The translations under genes and the position numbers were made by a program. DNA of 39,329 nucleotides from an uncultured Candidatus Saccharibacteria bacterium. Lineage in GTDB: Bacteria; Patescibacteriota; Minisyncoccia; Phycocordibacterales; CAIZLB01. The notes under the pieces were generated by a model. That model did not search any database. It was not told the origin of the DNA and worked only from the letters and a program-made list of their open reading frames with translations. The stretch lies in NCBI GenBank assembly GCA_964460835.1, contig CAYWQF010000002.1:1-39329 (forward strand). Reading direction: 5' to 3'. Below, piece by piece: positions 4,219 to 39,329 of this stretch (positions within the stretch are counted from its first letter, which is position 1; each line of letters begins with the position of its first letter).

Positions 4219-5376
4219 ATGAAACGACTGGGTTCACTTGTATTTTATATAGGCAACGGTGTTGTCAAAGGAGGACTTGTTTTGCATGAAAAAGGCAAAG
4301 CACCACGTATTTTATGTTCTCGTGTAAAGTACTTACCTCATTATCATGAGAGAGACAGAGAGCATCTAGAGAGTCGTATACTCTCTGAGTTTTCAAACCT
4401 TGTTCAAGAAATAAAGACAAAGATTATTCCTACAACTAAAGAAGCTCTTGATGTAAGGATACGAGATACTCGAATACTACTAGCTTCGCCTTGGTATGTA
4501 TCAGAGACAACTGTCATAAAGATGAAAGAACCAAAGCCTTTTTTGGTTACAGAAAAGATGCTCCTAGATTCAAAAGAAAATATTGTCAAAGGATATAGAG
4601 ATGCACATAAAGTTGATGTCATAGTTCTAGAGCAAAAAATACTCCGTGTATCACTAAATGGTTATCAGACTACTGATCCTATAAAAAAGAAAGCAGAATC
4701 GCTCGATATGACAGTGTATACAAGTTTTGCACGTCATTCTTCTGTGGAGGAGATTAAAAAGATAGTAGAACAAAACTTCAATGTCTCAGATATTTCCGTT
4801 CATTCGCAGTCTCTAGTCTCTTTCTCTGTTATAGGCGACACTTGGAGTGATGCTAGTCAATACATCATTGCTGATATCACATCAGAACTCACTGAGCTTG
4901 TGGCTGTACGAAATGGTGCTTTGTCTGAAGCTACGTCTTTCCCAATGGGTAAACAATATTTGATAAAAAGTGTAGGCGACAGTATGGGTGTGACAAGCGA
5001 AGTCGCTGAAAGTGTTTTAAAAATGAAAAATGAAGGCAAAATAGAGTCTGATTTGGCAAAGAAAGTTGATAAGGCTTTGGTAGATATTCAAAAAGACTGG
5101 CTAAAGTCTTTGACTGATGGACTAGTAGTAATGTCAGCAAGCAACTCTCTTCCTAGTATGTTTTTCTTGTTTGCTTCAAAGCATGTAGCAAATATATTTG
5201 CTAGTTTTATTGTAGAGGAAGAGTATCAACAGTTTTCATTTGCAGAAGGGAAGTTCCAAGTGCATCAGGTATCTACAAATGATTTGTCAAAATTCTGCAC
5301 CAATGCAATAGGCGTAGATGCCGACCTGTCCATAATGATTGCTGCAATATTTAGCAATAAGATGTTTTTTAATTAA
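4219..5376 (+). CDS. Hypothetical protein, possibly a degenerate actin-fold (FtsA/PilM-like) protein
   Basis: 385-aa ORF. The segment IIADITSELTELVAVRNGALSEATSFPMGKQYL resembles the DIGGGTTD...G...P.GG phosphate-2 region of FtsA/PilM, but with the glycines replaced. It is tightly coupled (9 nt) to the next gene. Confidence 0.55.
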   Translation: MKRLGSLVFYIGNGVVKGGLVLHEKGKAPRILCSRVKYLPHYHERDREHLESRILSEFSNLVQEIKTKIIPTTKEALDVRIRDTRILLASPWYVSETTVIKMKEPKPFLVTEKMLLDSKENIVKGYRDAHKVDVIVLEQKILRVSLNGYQTTDPIKKKAESLDMTVYTSFARHSSVEEIKKIVEQNFNVSDISVHSQSLVSFSVIGDTWSDASQYIIADITSELTELVAVRNGALSEATSFPMGKQYLIKSVGDSMGVTSEVAESVLKMKNEGKIESDLAKKVDKALVDIQKDWLKSLTDGLVVMSASNSLPSMFFLFASKHVANIFASFIVEEEYQQFSFAEGKFQVHQVSTNDLSKFCTNAIGVDADLSIMIAAIFSNKMFFN

Positions 5377-5385
5377 TTAAAAAAA

Positions 5386-7023
5386 ATGAAAAGCAAATTT
5401 CACGACATCATACCAAATGACAAGCGCTCAATCAGAAATGTGCCTATACCAGCACGTTCTGTAAGTCATATAGAGGCCAAAAAGCTTAAACAATTTGAAA
5501 ATGAAGAGAATGCTACTTATATAGATGCCATAGATGATGTTGCAGAGTTGAAGGGTCAAGGAATAAATCATGCAACAAAGACTGAACATCTGACTATTCA
5601 TCACGGTACTCATGGACACGCTCATACTCACGCGCACACACACAAGCATAGCGAGCAGCACTCTCACACCAACGGTTCTCATAGCCGTAGCAAAAAACAT
5701 AAGAGTGTTGATGGTATAGAATCTATAAATATTGAGCCGGCCTTTTATCAAGCCAATGAAGATATTGTTACAGAAAATCTAAAAGATTTTGATTCTACTG
5801 ATTCTGATAAAAAAAGAGGCAAGACTTTTTGGCTGGTCACACTAGCACTGATCATCGCTGTTATATATGGTTTTGGTACTTATTTTGCTAGCGCTACTAT
5901 AAATATAAAACTAGTTGAACAGACTTTTGATTTGAAAGATACAAAGATAGATCTTCAAGACATAAAACACGACGCCATTCAACAATCATTTACTAAAGCC
6001 GTGACTGTAAAAGTGACTGGTACAAAGAAAGTAGAAGAAAAAGCTACAGGTACGGTGATACTTTACAATAACTTCAGTAGTAGTGCGCAAACTCTGGCTA
6101 TAAATACTCGACTAGAGATTCCTGAGGGTCTCATATATAGAACTGTAAAGGAAGTCAGTATTCCTGGTATGAAGACGGTGTCTGGCAAAAAAGTGGCAGG
6201 TAGTGTGGAGGTGGGTGTCGTAGCAGACAAAGCTGGCGATACCTACAACAAGGGTATGAAGGACTTTGCTGTGGTGGCCTACAAAGGCTCTGATAGATAC
6301 AAGACTATATATGGACGGTCTAAGACAGCTCTAAAGGGTGGTTATTTGGGTATGGTGGCTGATATTTCAGATACTGATATGGCCCTAGCTATCAAAGATG
6401 CCAAAAAACTGATAAATGAGGCTGTGAATGCTGGATACTCAGCCCTTGCTAGTAAAAAAGAGGTTCCTTATACATATATTTCAAATGCATATCTAGTAGA
6501 TTACAGTGAGCCTAAACAAACCATATCTAAAGATGGCAAATCAGCCGATATAGAGCTTACAGCCAAGGTTATGGCTATTATCTTCAACACCGATTCACTA
6601 TCGCAGTACCTTGCCAATACTTTCGTAACAAAAACCTCTACAGCTTCAGCAAGTACAACAAACCCTTCACTTGATACCCCAGCCAATTCTTTAGCTGAAA
6701 AAACTGATAGTGGAGATAGTACGGTGATATCTAAAAAATACATTGCTACATTTGATCAAATAAATATGAAGATTTCCTCAGATACAAATGTGACAATGCT
6801 TAATACAAATGAAGGTTCTGTGGTCTTCTCCGGTAAAACATCTATCTCCTCTATCTTAGATGAAGATGTACTGAAAAGAGCTGTTAGCGGACTCAGTATA
6901 GAGCAAGCTACGGGAATCATAAAAAATATGGTGGACTTCAGTACATTAAGTATAAAAGCCTTTCCTTTTTGGCTAAAAACAATGCCTAAAATTGACAGTA
7001 TCAAGATTCAATTGCTATCATAG
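5386..7023 (+). CDS. Single-pass membrane protein with a cytoplasmic His-rich tract and a large extracytoplasmic domain (hypothetical)
   Basis: 545-aa ORF. The N-terminus reads DIIPNDKRSIRNVPIP. A His-rich tract HHGTHGHAHTHAHTHKHSEQHSHTNGSHS is encoded at nt 5584-5700. One TM helix FWLVTLALIIAVIYGFGTYFASA is followed by a ~370-aa beta-rich region. I recall similar N-termini in Parcubacteria ORFans but could not verify this. Confidence 0.7.
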   Translation: MKSKFHDIIPNDKRSIRNVPIPARSVSHIEAKKLKQFENEENATYIDAIDDVAELKGQGINHATKTEHLTIHHGTHGHAHTHAHTHKHSEQHSHTNGSHSRSKKHKSVDGIESINIEPAFYQANEDIVTENLKDFDSTDSDKKRGKTFWLVTLALIIAVIYGFGTYFASATINIKLVEQTFDLKDTKIDLQDIKHDAIQQSFTKAVTVKVTGTKKVEEKATGTVILYNNFSSSAQTLAINTRLEIPEGLIYRTVKEVSIPGMKTVSGKKVAGSVEVGVVADKAGDTYNKGMKDFAVVAYKGSDRYKTIYGRSKTALKGGYLGMVADISDTDMALAIKDAKKLINEAVNAGYSALASKKEVPYTYISNAYLVDYSEPKQTISKDGKSADIELTAKVMAIIFNTDSLSQYLANTFVTKTSTASASTTNPSLDTPANSLAEKTDSGDSTVISKKYIATFDQINMKISSDTNVTMLNTNEGSVVFSGKTSISSILDEDVLKRAVSGLSIEQATGIIKNMVDFSTLSIKAFPFWLKTMPKIDSIKIQLLS

Positions 7024-10831: not shown

Positions 10832-11239
10832 ATGGCCACAACAGAAGCAAAAACATATATAGAAGCAGTAGGACGAAGAAAGACTTCAACATGCAGAGTT
10901 CGTATTGTCCCTGCATCAAAACAGTCTATTACTATCAATGATAAAGAGCTTAACGAATACTTCAAGACAGAAGATCTACAGACAGTAGCTCTAGAGTCAG
11001 TAGTGAAGGCTGGTATAGACCAGAAGTTTGCTATCACTGTAAAAGTTCTAGGAGGTGGTATCAGTTCACAGTCTCAGGCTATACGACACGGTCTAGCTCG
11101 AGCACTCGAGATCTACGACAAAAACCTACGACCTACTCTAAAGAAAGCTGGTATGCTTACACGAGATCAGCGAGCAAAGGAGCGAAGAAAGTTCGGTCTC
11201 AAGAAGGCGCGAAAGGCCCCACAGTGGTCAAAGCGATAG
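10832..11239 (+). CDS. rpsI: 30S ribosomal protein S9
   Basis: GRRKTSTCRVRI, GGGISSQSQAIRHGLARAL and the C-terminal KKARKAPQWSKR are canonical for S9. Confidence 0.96.
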   Translation: MATTEAKTYIEAVGRRKTSTCRVRIVPASKQSITINDKELNEYFKTEDLQTVALESVVKAGIDQKFAITVKVLGGGISSQSQAIRHGLARALEIYDKNLRPTLKKAGMLTRDQRAKERRKFGLKKARKAPQWSKR

Positions 11240-11272
11240 TCCTCAAAGTAGATACTCTCCAAAAAACACAGA

Positions 11273-11305
11273 AAATAGCCTTAGAAATAGGGCTATTTTT
11301 GTTTG
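11273..11305 (+). terminator. Intrinsic terminator after rpsI
   Basis: 8-bp stem AAATAGCC(11273-11280)/GGCTATTT(11291-11298) with a 10-nt loop, followed by tttttgttt. It is also T-rich when read on the minus strand. Confidence 0.65.
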
Positions 11306-11329
11306 CATGGTTTTTTATGAATAAAACGC

Positions 11330-11357
11330 TTGACATATTTTGACACTATGTTATGAT
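11330..11357 (+). promoter_or_regulatory. Sigma70-like promoter of the large ncRNA candidate
   Basis: TTGACA (11330-11335), a 16-nt spacer, then TATGAT (11352-11357). It lies downstream of the rpsI terminator, and no ORF follows. Confidence 0.5.
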
Positions 11358-11361
11358 GTTA

Positions 11362-12039
11362 GTCATCAGGTGAGTGGTGATGAATCGCAAAAGACTGATA
11401 GGGGTTGGACAGCCAATCCTTAGAATAAGGCCTTCTTAGGTAAAATTCTTGGCGAAAGTCGAGACTTACTTGCCCCTCAAAAGGCAGAGAAGAAGGTAGG
11501 TATAGGTTGATCTTTAACTTTTTTCTTTTTTGGCTGAAAAAATGCCAAACATAGAAAGAAGGTTTCAATGAAAGCACTTTTGGTCAAAATGTTGCTTGGG
11601 GAAACCTGAGCGACATGATGCCCTACGGAGAAGATAATTACTCCGTTTGCTAACATTGAAAGCATGACTACTTATTTTACCCAAGCCGGGTAGCGTACAA
11701 GAGATAGCAATCTTGTGGCTTGTGTATATAAGTATCCTGACGGTTGGATTCACGCGTAGCCCGACACGAAGGCACTTCGGTGCTGTACGGACTAGGTGTT
11801 AGAGTCCTTGACCTGAAGGAGGTTGGGAGCGATCGTCGTTCCGTTAAATTCCAGTGGAAAAAATGAATCAGGCTCCGGCCTGGTGAATGGATCCCATTGG
11901 GATTAGTTAGAAAAATCTTGTTTAAGCCCTCGGTAACCTTCGGGTCCAGAGGGAACATAGAACATAAAGGTTTCCAAACCTTTCGGGCTCGGGAGTGTAT
12001 GTCATCACACTGACAACATCTCCTGAGCCTCTTTTTTTT
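11362..12039 (+). ncRNA. Unclassified large (~680 nt) highly structured RNA candidate
   Basis: The 857-nt gap has no + strand ORF of 60 aa or more. It has its own promoter and terminator. There are many short perfect stems, several capped by stable tetraloops that are only meaningful on the + strand: C(UUCG)G at 11771-11784 and 11936-11945, GAAA at 11447-11464 and 11591-11614, and UCCG at 11869-11882. The 3' half is 55% GC in a hand-counted line. No RNase P CR-I, tmRNA or SRP signature was seen. Confidence 0.65.
11985..12039 (+). terminator. Intrinsic terminator ending the ncRNA candidate
   Basis: GGCTCGGGAG (11986-11995) pairs with CTCCTGAGCC (12020-12029): 10 bp with one G-U, around an internally pairing loop, followed by tcTTTTTTTT (12030-12039). 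Confidence 0.7.
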
Positions 12040-12058
12040 GGAATTTTTTTAATAAAAC

Positions 12059-12087
12059 TTGCACAGAACCCTCAAGATGATTACAAT
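12059..12087 (+). promoter_or_regulatory. Candidate grpE promoter
   Basis: TTGCAC (12059-12064), a 17-nt spacer, then TACAAT (12082-12087). The grpE ATG is only 9 nt downstream of the -10 box and has no Shine-Dalgarno element. Confidence 0.4.
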
Positions 12088-12096
12088 ACCAACACT

Positions 12097-12792
12097 ATGA
12101 CAGATGAATTTAACAAAAACACAAACAACGACGATGCTATAGCTAGCGATTTAGAAGCTTCATTGGAAGAAATAGAAAATATTGAGCATTCAAGTGAACG
12201 CGCGGAACATGCGGAAGATGCAGAAGGTGCGCATGAACAAGAAGACTCAGAGGACATAGTCGTAGATGAAGACGTGGAGCTAGGCCCTGCGGAGACTATA
12301 AAAAAGCTACGTGCCAAGCTCAAGACTGCGGTAGAAGAAAAACAGCAGTATCTAAATGGCTGGCAAAAAGACAAAGCTGAGTTTATAAACGCCAGAAAGC
12401 GTGATGATGAAGCGAAGCAGGAATTTTTGAAGTTTGCCAAGCAGGGTGTGCTCGAAGATATTTTGCCAGTACTAGATAGCTTTGATATGGCCATGGGCAA
12501 AAATGGCGCTGAAGGCAACGCTCAGGCGCAAGCTTGGGAGTCTGTATCAAAAGAATGGCGAGCTGGTGTAGAAGGTATATACAATCAGCTAGTCGCAATA
12601 CTTTCTAAAAATGATGTATCTATCTTTGGCGCGGTAGGTGAGGCTTTTGATCCAAATCTACATCATTCTATAGGACTAGTGTCTACAGAAGATGCGACTC
12701 AAGATCACAAAGTAGCTGAGGTAATGCAAAGAGGCTATATGCTTGGAGGAAAAGTGGTACGACCAGCGATGGTAAAGGTGTGGGAGGTTTAA
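12097..12792 (+). CDS. grpE: Nucleotide exchange factor GrpE
   Basis: Acidic N-terminus, a coiled coil (KLRAKLKTAVEEKQQYLNGWQKDKAEFINARKR) and the C-terminal beta domain HHSIGLV...VAEVMQRGYMLGGKVVRPAMVKV. The start is moved from the track start 11995, which reads through the upstream terminator, to the in-frame ATG at 12097. Confidence 0.9.
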   Translation: MTDEFNKNTNNDDAIASDLEASLEEIENIEHSSERAEHAEDAEGAHEQEDSEDIVVDEDVELGPAETIKKLRAKLKTAVEEKQQYLNGWQKDKAEFINARKRDDEAKQEFLKFAKQGVLEDILPVLDSFDMAMGKNGAEGNAQAQAWESVSKEWRAGVEGIYNQLVAILSKNDVSIFGAVGEAFDPNLHHSIGLVSTEDATQDHKVAEVMQRGYMLGGKVVRPAMVKVWEV

Positions 12793-12873: not shown

Positions 12874-13007
12874 GCAACAAAAAACCCATGCTTAGCAACG
12901 ATAAAATACTAGCTCACAAAAGAAATGGTAACAGCGCAGTGTTTCTAACACAGGCTGATTCTTCATTTTTCCTTATATTTGCTCGTCTTGTAGGGGGCAA
13001 GGGCGGT

Positions 13008-13301
13008 ATGACTGTAAAGGTGCTAGCCAAGAAGGAGCTAAGCCCTGAGGAGGCTGAGATAGCCCTTGCAAAGCTTCAGGAAGGCTATCCAGCAGCGTAT
13101 CTGAGCCCTGTTTTGAGTTCTGCTGGTGCTAGTAAGGATATTCAGGACTGCGAAGCTCTTCTCTTGGAAAACCCAAAAACTGACGCAATCCCTTATGTAA
13201 AAGAAGTAAAGGCTCTAAAGCCAACTCTCTCTCCATATTTTCCTACAAAAGAAATTTTTCTTACACATCAAATGACTTGTGCTCCGAATTTTTCATACTA
13301 A
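13008..13301 (+). CDS. Small hypothetical protein (97 aa from ATG 13008; frame open from 12888)
   Basis: ORF embedded between grpE and dnaK. A G-rich stretch (gggggcaagggcgg) precedes ATG 13008. No recognisable motif, so coding status is uncertain. Confidence 0.4.
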   Translation: MTVKVLAKKELSPEEAEIALAKLQEGYPAAYLSPVLSSAGASKDIQDCEALLLENPKTDAIPYVKEVKALKPTLSPYFPTKEIFLTHQMTCAPNFSY

Positions 13302-18139: not shown

Positions 18140-18298
18140 ACTTAAATGACCCAGGCATCCGACCAAATACTTCGGAAAAAACGCGATTTATTTCGCGATA
18201 TACGTTTAAGCCAGAATCTTACTGGCTCTATTAGGCACCCTTTAACAGTCGACGACTCTAATACAGTCGTCGCTTTTTTTATACATTTTTCAAAATTT
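18140..18298 (+). promoter_or_regulatory. Candidate structured 5' leader/attenuator (or independent small RNA) preceding plsC
   Basis: Hairpins CCGA/TCGG (18159-18175), CGCGA/TCGCG (18182-18197) and AGCCAG/CTGGCT (18209-18227), then a terminator at 18250-18280. The alternative reading is a 51-aa N-terminal extension of PlsC, because the frame is open from ATG 18146. Confidence 0.35.
18250..18280 (+). terminator. Intrinsic terminator-like hairpin 18 nt upstream of the plsC ATG
   Basis: CGACGAC (18250-18256) pairs with GTCGTCG (18266-18272), with a 9-nt loop, followed by c then TTTTTTT (18274-18280). Confidence 0.5.
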
Positions 18299-19024
18299 AT
18301 GAAAAATTTACCTAGTTTATGCTACAACCTTGCACACTCAGGACTCATATTTACCCTAAAAATACTCAAAGAAATCAGATGCGCGGCCATCAAGATCTAC
18401 GCTGGTACTACGCAGTTTCTATCATGGATTGTTTTGTGGCCATTATTTCATCTTTTATTTAAAGTACGTATAAATGGTAGAGAAAATCTTCGAGGACTTC
18501 ACGGTCCACATATCATCATCGCCAATCACACTCGTTTTTATGATAGTTTTCTTTTTCGTCTAGCTGTCGGTTTTTGGTCAAGACTTCTACCTATGCGTTT
18601 TATGGCCGTACAAAAGTTTGATCACGGTTTTCTAAATATGATGCAAAAGCTCGGTATCATACCACTCGTTTACGGTATCTTTGGTGTGTTTGTGGTAGAG
18701 CACGGTCGAGGTTTGCACAAAAACCTGAAGAGAGCTAAAGAAATCATCAAAAACAATGGGACAGTAGCTCTTTTCCCTGAGGGGCGAATAAGCAAAGATG
18801 GGTCTATAGGTATGTTTAAACGAGGTGTGTCTGCTTTGGCGCTTTCTACTGATACTCCCGTGCTTTCACTCGGTATACATATAGATGACAGTCGTTTGCG
18901 AAATATGACTGGTCGCGGTATTATAAATATAAACATAGGTGCTTCAGAAAAACTTCAGACACATCACACCTATGAAGAACTCGCTGAAATACTTCGCGTG
19001 AAGGTGATGGGGTTGGTAAAGTAA
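18299..19024 (+). CDS. plsC: 1-acyl-sn-glycerol-3-phosphate acyltransferase family protein
   Basis: HX4D catalytic motif in IIIANHTRFYDSF and the FPEGR motif in LFPEGRISKDG. The start at 18299 gives a normal-length protein, but the ORF is open back to 18146, so the start is ambiguous. Confidence 0.85.
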   Translation: MKNLPSLCYNLAHSGLIFTLKILKEIRCAAIKIYAGTTQFLSWIVLWPLFHLLFKVRINGRENLRGLHGPHIIIANHTRFYDSFLFRLAVGFWSRLLPMRFMAVQKFDHGFLNMMQKLGIIPLVYGIFGVFVVEHGRGLHKNLKRAKEIIKNNGTVALFPEGRISKDGSIGMFKRGVSALALSTDTPVLSLGIHIDDSRLRNMTGRGIININIGASEKLQTHHTYEELAEILRVKVMGLVK

Positions 19025-23629: not shown

Positions 23630-23736
23630 ACATGATAGAAAGGATAGGGTGTCTAGGCCATCACGGTGCCTAAAATCACTACGGGCTGGTGCTCTAGTGG
23701 ATGAAAACAGACAAAAACAAACCCTTATTTTGAAAA

Positions 23737-24537
23737 GTGAATCACGATGTTTATCCCAAAATCCCATTTTGTATGGGTCAAGGTTATGCAAAAAATCTTC
23801 ATTTCTGCCGAACTCTTGGAAGAGAGTGGAGAACGGCATTTGCTTTCTCACCCATGCCAAAAGGATCGCTTTCTGTAGAAGCAGAAGGGGCAAAACAACT
23901 TTTGTCCTACTTCAAAGGATCATTGGAGCCAGACATCTTGTTTGGCCACTCAACTGGCGCAGTACTGGCGCTGAGCTTGGCACGTTTTTTGCCGAGTGTT
24001 CAGAAGCTGGTGCTTCTGGCGCCAGCGCCAATGCCGGGTATGATTATTCCAGCCTATCTGCAAGCTCGCATGCTGTTAAACCCGCTACAGTATCTACTGC
24101 CGTCGCTACTCGGAAAAGAATTTTCTCTGACACGAGCAGATACATGCGGTCTGATGCTCAACATGATGAAGTCTTGGGATCAGAATGAGTCCTTGCCGTT
24201 TTGTGGCAAACCTTGGTCGGGAGCAATAGTGAGAGAGATGATGCTTTCACCGTTCTCATCCTCATTTGACTGGGCTGGCCTTGAAGGTAAAGAGATTCAC
24301 GTGATCAGCGGTGGCGCTAACAAGATGATTCAACCATGGTTTGCGAAAAAGGTTGGTCAGCACATTGCTGACCAAGCGGGTGTAACTGTGCACTATCGGG
24401 AAATACCCAATGCTGACCATACACTGATGTGCGGTGACAATGCATCATTTGCATTTCACTGCATTTTCCAACGTATCGACGTTCGTCCACCGTATCGTGA
24501 CGAGATCGATTTGGCCTGTGACATGAGCTACTGCTGA
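23737..24537 (+). CDS. Alpha/beta-fold hydrolase (serine hydrolase)
   Basis: Nucleophile elbow GHSTG in ILFGHSTGAVLALSLA and a likely catalytic His in NADHTL near the C-terminus. GC is 45-55% in hand-counted lines. It has a GTG start and no classic HG oxyanion motif, so the N-terminus may be atypical or truncated. Confidence 0.7.
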   Translation: MNHDVYPKIPFCMGQGYAKNLHFCRTLGREWRTAFAFSPMPKGSLSVEAEGAKQLLSYFKGSLEPDILFGHSTGAVLALSLARFLPSVQKLVLLAPAPMPGMIIPAYLQARMLLNPLQYLLPSLLGKEFSLTRADTCGLMLNMMKSWDQNESLPFCGKPWSGAIVREMMLSPFSSSFDWAGLEGKEIHVISGGANKMIQPWFAKKVGQHIADQAGVTVHYREIPNADHTLMCGDNASFAFHCIFQRIDVRPPYRDEIDLACDMSYC

Positions 24538-37616: not shown

Positions 37617-39329
37617 ATGTGCGGAATAGCAGGAATCATAGGCCCCAAAGAATACACATCTGACAAAATCGACCGCATGGTGGATATTATTTCTCATAGA
37701 GGTCCAGACGACCGAGGAGTGCTCGTAGAAGACTCTTTCGCTTTTGGTATGCGTCGACTATCTATTATAGACCTAGCTCGAGGTCATCAGCCTATATCAA
37801 ACGAAGACGGCACAGTTACCATAGTCTTCAATGGTGAGATATACAATCACCGTGAACTTCGCCCAACACTGATATCACTTGGTCACACACTCAAGACAGA
37901 AAGTGATACTGAAGTCTTGGTACATATGTATGAGCAGTATGGTCCAGATATGCTCAAAAAACTTCGGGGTATGTTTGCTTTTGCAATATTTGATAAAAAT
38001 AAAAATGAGATTTTTATTGCGCGAGATTTTTTCGGCATCAAACCACTTTACTATCGTGTGGAAAATGAAAAGATTGTAAGCTTCGGTTCTGAGATAAAAA
38101 GTCTTTTGGATTCTGTAACTACTAGCGCGCCGAAAAGCGCGCCAAAGATAAACGAGCAGGCTGTATACAACTATTTTGCATTTCAATACAATCCACTCGA
38201 AGAAACAATGTTTGAGGGTATATTTAAACTACTACCTGGACATTATATGACCATCAGTCTTGATGAGAGTGGCAAAGCTGGCTCATACAAAATAGAACCG
38301 TATTGGCATTATCAATTTGATCATAAAAAAGAATGGCCGAGTGTAACTGATGCTGACGAAAAATCTCTAGCTGAAGAAGTAAAAAAAGTTGTGGAGGATT
38401 CTGTCGAGCATCACATTATCAGTGATGTGCCTGTCGGCTCATTTCTATCTGGTGGAGTAGACAGTGGCATCATCGTTAGTACATTACAAAATCTACACAA
38501 AAAAGCTGGTGCCGAGTCTATCTCTACTTTCACCATAGGATTCGATCATGTGAGTGAATACACCGAAGCAAAACAAGTCGCTGATGCTATAGGTTCAAAA
38601 CATCACGAGATAAAAGTAAAGTTTGATGAATATTTTGATGAGCTACCAAAGATTGCGTGGCATTTTGATGAACCTGTAGCAGATCCTTCGGCTGTAGCTT
38701 TGTACTTCCTAGCTCGTGAAGCTCGTAAGAAAGTAAAAGTAGTATTGTCTGGTGAAGGCGCTGACGAGCTTTTTGGCGGATACAATATATATCGCGAGCC
38801 TTTTGATACTGCATACATAGCGCGACTTCCAGATTTTGTACAAAAATACCTTATACAACCTCTACTAAAAGTTCCTTTTAACTTCTACGGCAAAAACTAT
38901 ATTCGACGGTCAACAACAAGACTTGAAGATAGATATATAGGCAATGCTTATATATTTAAACCTGCCGATCAAAATAAACTTTGGAAAAACAGCACGCCGA
39001 TGTCTGGCACAAAATATGGTGCAAAAAAACTAAAATCCGTAGATATGTCTCCATATTATGACATTGTGAAAGGCGAGACTGACTCTAGAAAAATGCAATA
39101 CATAGACATACAGTTTTGGCTACCTGGAGATATACTCGCAAAAGCTGACAAAATGACTATGGCGCATTCGCTAGAGCTACGTGTGCCTTTTTTGGATATA
39201 GAAGTAGGGAAGTTGTCCTCTAGGATTCCTGATAAATATAAATACAAAGACGGCAAAACAAAGTACATACTACGCAAAGCTTTTGAAGGTATCGTACCTC
39301 AAGCCACAGCAGATAGAAAGAAGCTCGGA
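37617..39329 (+). CDS. asnB: Asparagine synthase (glutamine-hydrolysing) family amidotransferase (3'-partial)
   Basis: Hand translation from ATG 37617 gives MCGIAGIIGPKEY..., the Ntn Cys2 of class II amidotransferases. The PP-loop SDVPVGSFLSGGVDS is at about 38421, and the window ends in ...DRKKLG. The frame stays open to the window end, which is why it is absent from the ORF track. Confidence 0.9.
   Translation, partial: MCGIAGIIGPKEYTSDKIDRMVDIISHRGPDDRGVLVEDSFAFGMRRLSIIDLARGHQPISNEDGTVTIVFNGEIYNHRELRPTLISLGHTLKTESDTEVLVHMYEQYGPDMLKKLRGMFAFAIFDKNKNEIFIARDFFGIKPLYYRVENEKIVSFGSEIKSLLDSVTTSAPKSAPKINEQAVYNYFAFQYNPLEETMFEGIFKLLPGHYMTISLDESGKAGSYKIEPYWHYQFDHKKEWPSVTDADEKSLAEEVKKVVEDSVEHHIISDVPVGSFLSGGVDSGIIVSTLQNLHKKAGAESISTFTIGFDHVSEYTEAKQVADAIGSKHHEIKVKFDEYFDELPKIAWHFDEPVADPSAVALYFLAREARKKVKVVLSGEGADELFGGYNIYREPFDTAYIARLPDFVQKYLIQPLLKVPFNFYGKNYIRRSTTRLEDRYIGNAYIFKPADQNKLWKNSTPMSGTKYGAKKLKSVDMSPYYDIVKGETDSRKMQYIDIQFWLPGDILAKADKMTMAHSLELRVPFLDIEVGKLSSRIPDKYKYKDGKTKYILRKAFEGIVPQATADRKKLG

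Follow-up and report, generated by a model that had tools for sequence, protein, structure and literature searches.

A candidate lineage-specific structured RNA gene in the variable rpsI-grpE spacer of a Patescibacteria genome

Large structured RNAs without a known function are rare, and the Patescibacteria, a phylum of ultra-small genomes, are to our knowledge not generally associated with such large non-coding RNAs (ncRNAs). Among the described examples, ROOL (RF03087) and GOLLD (RF01998) have patchy distributions linked to mobile elements (PMC5737381, PMC12286853). Here we analyze a stretch of 39,329 nucleotides (nt) from an uncultured Candidatus Saccharibacteria bacterium, referred to in full as the window, in which the spacer between rpsI and grpE contains a unit predicted to be transcribed as an ncRNA of about 675 nt. 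The unit shares with ROOL, GOLLD, OLE (RF01071) and raiA a size of several hundred nucleotides, a dense multi-hairpin appearance with GNRA and UNCG caps, the lack of coding capacity and, as predicted from its signals, the organization of a stand-alone transcription unit; in the literature, we found no large structured RNA described from Patescibacteria. We lean, with a confidence somewhat better than even, toward reading positions 11364-12039 of the + strand as a lineage-specific, stand-alone structured RNA gene that is carried as cargo in the rpsI-grpE slot. The features that delimit it are the following (window coordinates).

11330..11357, + strand: sigma-70-type promoter, TTGACA-16-TGtTATGAT, 11 of 12 consensus matches and an upstream TG (extended -10)
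11325-11335, + strand: promoter word AACGCTTGACA, the upstream part of the promoter, common to the non-coding units of the related loci L051 and L053
11364..12039, + strand: predicted ncRNA of ~675 nt, from folding, absence of a coding frame and strand-specific tetraloops
11985..12039, + strand: intrinsic terminator, 19-bp stem in three segments and then U8 (12032-12039), mean pair probability 0.95-0.96
11308..11327, no strand: left copy of a direct repeat, TGGTTTTTTATGAATAAAAC, bracketing the unit
12039..12058, no strand: right copy of the direct repeat, TGGAATTTTTTTAATAAAAC, bracketing the unit

The 5' end of the RNA was placed about 7 nt past the -10 box and the 3' end in the U-tract. The three segments of the terminator stem pair 11985-11995 with 12020-12030, 11996-11998 with 12016-12018, and 12000-12004 with 12011-12015. 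An earlier note, made from the letters of this DNA alone, had described the unit as having its own promoter (TTGACA-16-TATGAT) and its own terminator within a gap of 857 nt that separates the rpsI stop (11239) from the grpE ATG (12097); its coordinates and sequence features agree with the sequence, those of both signals included. As they are distinct from the terminator (11272-11305) and the promoter (12059-12087) of the neighboring genes, the unit appears, as far as the sequence tells, to be an independent transcription unit.

Folding of the + strand from 11364 to 12031 (668 nt) gave a minimum free energy of -242 kcal/mol, with z = -7.41 over 100 dinucleotide shuffles, against z = -3.53 for the reverse complement of the same segment and the same number of shuffles. 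Hairpins with a GNRA or UNCG loop and a stem of at least 5 bp occur four times on the + strand in 685 nt of the unit and not at all on the antisense strand; with a background of 0.36 per kb on the rest of the window's + strand, this amounts to an enrichment of about 16-fold. Since the folding z-score is strand-asymmetric and the tetraloops are strand-specific, the + orientation is fixed, in agreement with the earlier note, and both results argue for selection on RNA structure. In a scan of both strands of the whole window with 150-nt sliding windows, those at 11408 (z = -3.7) and 11558 (z = -5.7) were within the ten most negative, these z-scores being noisy at 15 shuffles per window. The same scan yielded other strongly negative windows at 18158-18307 (+), 36908, 15458, 24608 and 16958; the strongest value (z = -6.8, equally noisy with its 15 shuffles) was that at 18158, the start of an acyltransferase gene.

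The maximum expected accuracy (MEA) structure contains 40 helix segments arranged in about a dozen stem-loop domains over ~675 nt, and most of its helices have a mean pair probability (P) of at least 0.9. The predicted domains, all on the + strand, are listed below.

11362..11381, + strand: 5'-terminal hairpin of 7 bp, P 0.91
11399..11422, + strand: 10-bp hairpin UAGGGGUUGG-ACAG-CCAAUCCUUA, P 0.98
11430..11497, + strand: three-way junction closed by GCCUUCUU/AAGAAGGU, P 0.63-0.98
11447-11464, + strand: UCUUGGC-GAAA-GUCGAGA hairpin inside the three-way junction, from the GNRA/UNCG hairpin scan
11518..11561, + strand: AU-rich hairpin CUUUUUUCU/AGAAAGAAG with an inner UUUGGC/GCCAAA, P 0.75-0.95
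11563..11661, + strand: domain closed by UUUCAAUG/CAUUGAAA, P 0.92-1.00, overlapping the 150-nt window at 11558 (z = -5.7)
11589-11616, + strand: 12-bp GAAA-capped hairpin in the UUUCAAUG/CAUUGAAA domain
11625-11646, + strand: ACGGAG/CUCCGU hairpin in the UUUCAAUG/CAUUGAAA domain
11669..11734, + strand: long interrupted hairpin UACUUAU.../...AUAAGUA with the apex ACAAGA/UCUUGU, P 0.77-0.90
11735..11820, + strand: long irregular hairpin capped by GGCAC-UUCG-GUGCU (11771-11784), inner stems P 0.77-1.00
11826..11842, + strand: 7-bp hairpin GGAGCGA/UCGUUCC, P 0.96
11847..11904, + strand: hairpin with an 11-bp base and the cap AUCAGGC-UCCG-GCCUGGU, P 0.97-1.00
11927..11953, + strand: hairpin CCCUCGG..ACC-UUCG-GGU..CCAGAGGG, P 0.83-1.00

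The outer closing helices of the irregular hairpin at 11735..11820 (11735-11738/11817-11820 and 11742-11745/11810-11813) reach only P 0.55-0.59, and in the hairpin at 11847..11904 the sequence can be read as an internal loop with tandem G-A/A-G oppositions. Thirteen short stems had been listed in the earlier note. Eleven are present in the MEA structure, eight of them at a mean pair probability of at least 0.9 and three at lower values (CAAGA/TCTTG 0.77, GGCAC-UUCG-GUGCU 0.86, AGGTT/AACCT 0.62), and the other two, both small, prefer different partners: in the global fold AGTCC (11803-11807) pairs with 11746-11751 and CCATTGG (11894-11900) with CCAGTGG (11851-11857). The 55% GC once given for the 3' half was overstated, as this half has a GC fraction of 0.46-0.48 in 300-nt windows against about 0.38-0.42 in the flanks.

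We then considered whether the stretch could be translated. The longest stop-free segment of the + strand has 48 codons and no + strand open reading frame (ORF) attains 60 aa. Stops number 7-19 per frame over all six frames, with 15-19 in each + frame of the 751-nt insert (11306-12056), and reassigning any single stop codon opens none of the six. The minus strand contains stop-free runs of 64-123 codons, which could be taken to suggest that at least one small protein is encoded by the unit, on whichever strand, all the more so as the genome shows no Shine-Dalgarno sequences and ribosome binding sites are of no help in judging starts. We give this possibility next to no weight. Neither a 93-aa minus-strand ORF nor the 16 stop-free segments of at least 28 aa in the six frames, joined end to end into one query, had a match among 5.8 billion predicted proteins, a search made because gene callers often put spurious ORFs on RNA genes. 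With the 123-codon frame, phmmer against 1.84 billion representatives returned a single tandem-repeat protein (P0121), an artefact, and nothing else. Besides, neither a promoter nor a terminator is evident on the minus strand, and all other complete ORFs of at least 250 aa that the window contains are + strand ORFs. The non-coding character proposed for the unit is thus upheld by stop-rich frames, none of which has a protein homologue.

A second question was whether the unit belongs to a known RNA family in a very diverged form, such as RNase P, tmRNA, a group II intron (circularly permuted ones included), ROOL, GOLLD, OLE, raiA or HEARO. Its size and ornate look are all that speaks for this. 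Rfam 15 at gathering thresholds produced 0 matches across the whole window, and with lax filters and E<=10 over 11200-12150 (951 nt) it produced 13 matches at chance level, all to unrelated small families; RNase P A/B, tmRNA, SRP, 6S, ROOL, GOLLD, OLE, raiA, HEARO and group I/II introns were not among them. ARAGORN found no tRNA or tmRNA in the window. As for group II introns, neither Intron_gpII nor D1-D4 matched at E<=10, and the GAAA hairpins at 11447-11464 and 11589-11616 are, from their sequence, unbulged and devoid of the AGC triad, whereas domain V is a hairpin of ~34 nt that has this triad, a bulge of 2 nt and a GNRA loop. We therefore consider a divergent known family highly improbable, and the view that the unit is no recognizable family stands even at this permissive threshold. 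The unit appears to belong to no described family and in kind resembles the large ornate bacterial RNAs: it is longer than ~400 nt, is rich in stems and has no coding potential. A class of such RNAs also has multiple representatives and a structure supported by covariation; as the homologue searches reported below were empty, the idea of a new large RNA class is not supported.

The unit lies between two core gene groups, in the order rpoA-rplQ-rplM-rpsI / spacer / grpE-orf137-dnaK-dnaJ, which is identical in relatives. The elements on both sides are as follows.

10832..11239, + strand: rpsI (ribosomal protein S9), 135-aa ORF ending the upstream ribosomal-protein/rpoA cluster, PF00380 found on the homologous genes of relatives
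11272..11305, + strand: rpsI intrinsic terminator, 12-13-bp stem with a GAAA loop and a T-run, seen as an inverted repeat and as a GNRA hairpin at 11284
12059..12087, + strand: grpE promoter, TTGCAC-17-TACAAT, ending 9 nt before the ATG at 12097
12097..12792, + strand: grpE, PF01025

For comparison we assembled 59 loci, of which 46 surround grpE in GTDB representatives and 13 were taken from the public assemblies with the nearest GrpE homologues; they are designated L001 onward. Among GTDB species representatives the best GrpE matches have 63-67% identity and are named Paceibacteria/Taylorbacteria, the type of Patescibacteria to which we assign the window. The closest genome is that of L047, with a GrpE 83% identical and flanks of 82-86% DNA identity. 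Its alignment with the window runs up to the rpsI terminator (ending near 11305) and resumes at the grpE promoter, and the stretch in between is occupied by an unrelated ORF of 155 aa that has a terminator of its own. The window unit as a decayed copy of this 155-aa gene was rejected on a negative tblastn search. The empty-site state is seen in L048 and L049, where nothing separates the rpsI terminator from the grpE promoter and the spacer measures 84 nt. Other relatives have a hairpin insert of ~190 nt (L050), two small ORFs (L052), or a 240-aa ORF plus ~650 nt of non-coding DNA (L053), and in L054 (3392-3938) and L055 (84-317) the cargo is a HicA toxin gene (PF07927) and a 102-aa ORF, the latter preceding the HicA gene in L054; the slot thus also takes cargo of the toxin-antitoxin type. 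Measured from the rpsI stop to where the GrpE match begins, the gap varies across the clade from 11 to 2224 nt. Since the cargo differs from relative to relative, the spacer is a slot of hypervariable, accessory content, the window unit being one of its cargoes. This pattern was in itself unexpected, and the intrinsic signals of the unit are unusually strong.

The borders of the unit fit with this picture. The bracketing direct repeat is 20 nt long, its copies are identical at 16/20 positions and lie 731 nt apart, and this identity was reached in 3/1000 shuffles of the two junction sequences. Both copies sit just upstream of a -35 box, one that of the RNA promoter and the other that of the grpE promoter, an arrangement that would fit an insertion in which the sequence upstream of the grpE promoter was duplicated. 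The flanking repeats suggest that the unit may have arrived by insertion. With a MITE-like or IS-derived non-autonomous element in mind, we looked for terminal inverted repeats and extra copies: no convincing terminal inverted repeats of the insert were found, just an A-run/T-run pair, and no second copy exists within the 39-kb window.

Being directly upstream of grpE in the same orientation, the unit might be a cis-acting leader or regulator of grpE-dnaK, thermosensing or attenuating, with read-through into the operon, and the sequence upstream of the RNA -35 box does resemble that upstream of the grpE -35 box. However, a 19-bp terminator with U8, unconditional in appearance, parts the unit from grpE, whose own promoter 9 nt before the ATG is kept in relatives whether the slot is filled or empty (alignment to L047, L048 and L050). 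Moreover, the non-coding units found in the slot of L002, L051, L053, L056 and L057 point away from grpE, and close relatives do without the window unit. Because of the strong terminator, the conserved grpE promoter and these five oppositely directed units, we regard a cis role as very unlikely.

Two further observations concern the slot. An element of ~38 nt, AAATTTTGTGAGCGACGRYGARCAAAATATTCGTGAC, with the inverted repeat TTTTGT-N12-ACAAAA, lies in the rpsI-grpE slot of four loci (L002 5187-5229, L003 ~5603-5641, L014 ~5366-5406 and L052 ~1050-1087) and the window lacks it; its copies share 92-95% identity, the GrpE proteins of the genomes concerned just 45-65%, and, judged by its sequence, it looks like an operator. 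Also, eight assemblies (L001, L018, L026, L035, L051, L056, L057 and L059) break less than 1 kb upstream of grpE, a count given with no background rate of contig ends for comparison; such breaks would be expected if co-occurring strains differ in slot content.

Large non-coding units are present in six further slots, at the positions given below.

L053, 2690-3345, strand opposite to grpE: non-coding unit
L056, ~270-880, strand opposite to grpE: non-coding unit
L057, ~40-470 (slot L057/L058), strand opposite to grpE: non-coding unit
L002, 5320-5800, strand opposite to grpE: non-coding unit
L004, 5458-5885, + strand: non-coding unit of ~430 nt with a TTGACA promoter and two terminators
L051, 1-272, strand opposite to grpE: non-coding unit cut by the contig end, 272 nt seen

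The five units on the strand opposite to grpE are 430-650 nt long and have a perfect TTGACA -35 box located beside the grpE promoter and facing away from it; toward rpsI, a terminator hairpin with a U-tract is visible in all of them except the truncated L051. The sense strands of the slot units have no long ORFs. Four of the six units were folded and all four fold well, with z-scores that include -5.9 (L004), -5.0 (L053) and -3.9 (L002), while a 246-nt insert of L006 is poorly folded (z = -0.4). Within the 587 kb made up by the window and the loci, the 11-mer AACGCTTGACA has three occurrences where 0.27 would be expected, and the three sites are the promoters of the window, L051 and L053 units, where the similarity extends through the spacer to the extended -10 box as AACGCTTGACA-N16/17-TATG[CT]TA. 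In addition, GCTTGACATAT is common to L057 and the window.

From these data it is conceivable that the window unit belongs to a family of large ncRNAs of this Paceibacteria clade that keeps its position beside grpE-dnaK, in either orientation, but evolves very fast and retains only the promoter and the ability to fold stably. The six units in the same slot, the -35 box perfect in all of them, the terminators, the strong folding of three and the shared promoter and GCTTGACATAT words speak in its favor. Against it, in local alignments controlled by shuffling and in a comparison of k-mers, no two units, the window's included, resemble each other more than expected by chance, and a covariance model built on the 5'-terminal 143 nt of the window unit alone matched none of the others. 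Their orientations differ, the tetraloop enrichment holds for the window unit and weakly for L004 (L056 and L057 not being counted), and in several close relatives the slot is empty or holds protein-coding cargo. Rfam was negative at gathering thresholds on 11 + 6 related loci and at E<=1 on L002, so that the slot-unit loci scanned, which excluded L056 and L057, gave no match either. We are doubtful of such a family. Equally tentative is the broader proposal of a class of large (0.4-0.7 kb) structured RNA genes beside grpE-dnaK in Paceibacteria-type Patescibacteria whose sequence would turn over so fast that they could be recognized between genera by nothing but the promoter AACGCTTGACA...TATGYTA. 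If the family were real, it would be a new large bacterial RNA class defined by synteny and fold and not by sequence, with the window RNA as its most ornate member.

Returning to the reading of a lineage-specific RNA gene, several points weigh against it. The nearest relative, L047, is without the RNA, and nhmmer and sensitive blastn found no sequence similar to the unit in the 59 loci. A distant blastn search against phage and plasmid records and an exact 23-mer search of IMG/VR gave no match. For metagenomes, stop-free frames of the RNA were converted into 8-residue peptides and these into degenerate 24-mers, used six per scan; none of 12, covering the unit from a few bases past its start up to the terminator hairpin, matched JGI metagenome contigs, and none of 12, one of which was a terminator-hairpin word replacing one body word, matched IMG/VR. 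No homologue was thus found in any collection searched, and the unit has support from neither conservation nor covariation. The large-collection searches, with exact or degenerate 24-mers and spurious ORFs, miss relatives below ~85-90% nucleotide identity, and this limit of sensitivity makes the result one of no close relative in public data, not one of no relative existing. The conservation in relatives that the earlier note had itself set as a test therefore failed, which weakens the functional claim. Furthermore, the well-definedness of the structural ensemble is just modestly above that of shuffles (z ~ -1.3 to -1.5), and thermodynamic z-scores with consensus promoter and terminator matches do not amount to proof of function.

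The same facts bring up the possibility that the stretch is non-functional inserted DNA, the remnant of something mobile or horizontally acquired in which the signals are fortuitous and the fold is owed to composition or history. An orphan in every search, absent from the closest relative, placed in a slot that gathers unrelated inserts and flanked by a direct repeat suggestive of an insertion event, is what such a remnant would look like. It would have to be reconciled, however, with a folding z-score of -7.4 that is strand-asymmetric, with the enrichment of strand-specific, extra-stable tetraloops, and with the placement of a near-perfect promoter precisely at one end and of a very strong terminator precisely at the other. 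The window, with nearly all its genes on the + strand, is moreover tightly packed, and the genomes of Patescibacteria are small (~1 Mb) and gene-dense, so that a piece of junk DNA of 750 nt would be out of the ordinary. We consider inert DNA unlikely.

According to the reading that we prefer, transcription of the RNA gene would start at a near-consensus extended -10 promoter of its own and end at the strong intrinsic terminator, independently of rpsI, which has its own terminator upstream, and of grpE, which has its own conserved promoter downstream. It would represent accessory cargo of a hypervariable intergenic slot that holds different small units in each related genome. We infer that the RNA is transcribed and stable, and that it would act in trans as a folded scaffold or protein-binding particle, not by base-pairing or in cis. 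A search for trans-pairing targets with RNAduplex against 36 gene starts gave just diffuse, uninterpretable duplexes. Because the distribution of the cargo is accessory and patchy, it argues for a dispensable role, related to niche or conflict, rather than for a housekeeping one.

Other features of the window were recorded along the way. A Shine-Dalgarno sequence was found in 0/24 of the gene starts inspected (e.g. 12097, 17585, 29173, 33594), and several of these 24 genes have a TATAAT-like box only 6-10 nt ahead of the ATG, a spacing that suggests that leaderless or near-leaderless mRNAs may be widespread in the source genome. Between grpE and dnaK lies a 137-aa ORF (12888-13301) with no Pfam match; ORFs of 131-144 aa occupy the same position in L047, L048 and L056, and it looks like a conserved partner of unknown function in the chaperone cluster. 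An alpha/beta-hydrolase gene (PF12697, 23737-24537) with a GTG start, a GC content visibly above its surroundings and ~200 nt of non-coding DNA upstream may be another acquired gene, and its presence led us to reject 23649-24537 as non-coding. A second ncRNA at 37618-39329 was likewise rejected on account of an asparagine-synthase-like ORF that runs off the window, and a replication origin at the rpsI-grpE spacer was rejected as the cumulative GC skew shows no change of direction there.

In the small genomes of Patescibacteria each kilobase is costly, and the slot bears on how accessory non-coding genes are acquired and turned over in small symbiotic genomes. If the RNA is transcribed and folded as predicted, it would add one more unrelated large RNA to the puzzle posed by OLE, ROOL and GOLLD, and the rpsI-grpE slot would be a natural source of further examples, with seven non-homologous candidates already. 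If it is not transcribed, the unit would serve as a cautionary case of how convincing consensus signals and thermodynamic stability can look in an orphan sequence.

Compared with ROOL, GOLLD, OLE and raiA, the window unit has no covariance-model similarity and belongs to a different phylum; it is a single known copy, without relatives or covariation support, and has no phage, tRNA or partner-protein context. With 6S RNA and mycobacterial Ms1, fast-evolving housekeeping regulators that are both kept by synteny and not by sequence, it may share positional conservation with almost no conservation of sequence and a strong promoter of constitutive type. Unlike them, it is not rod-shaped with a central bubble, is three times longer, has no 6S Rfam match and is absent from close relatives, which is unexpected for a housekeeping RNA. 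The slot itself differs from the integration and accessory-gene hotspots between core genes described for defence and toxin-antitoxin islands in that its cargo is tiny (0.2-2 kb) and much of it non-coding, with no integrase or transposase in any locus. Yet it resembles them in that a core pair, rpsI and grpE, brackets cargo that differs from genome to genome, among which are a HicA toxin cassette and small hypothetical ORFs, and in the direct repeats found at the borders of the window insert.

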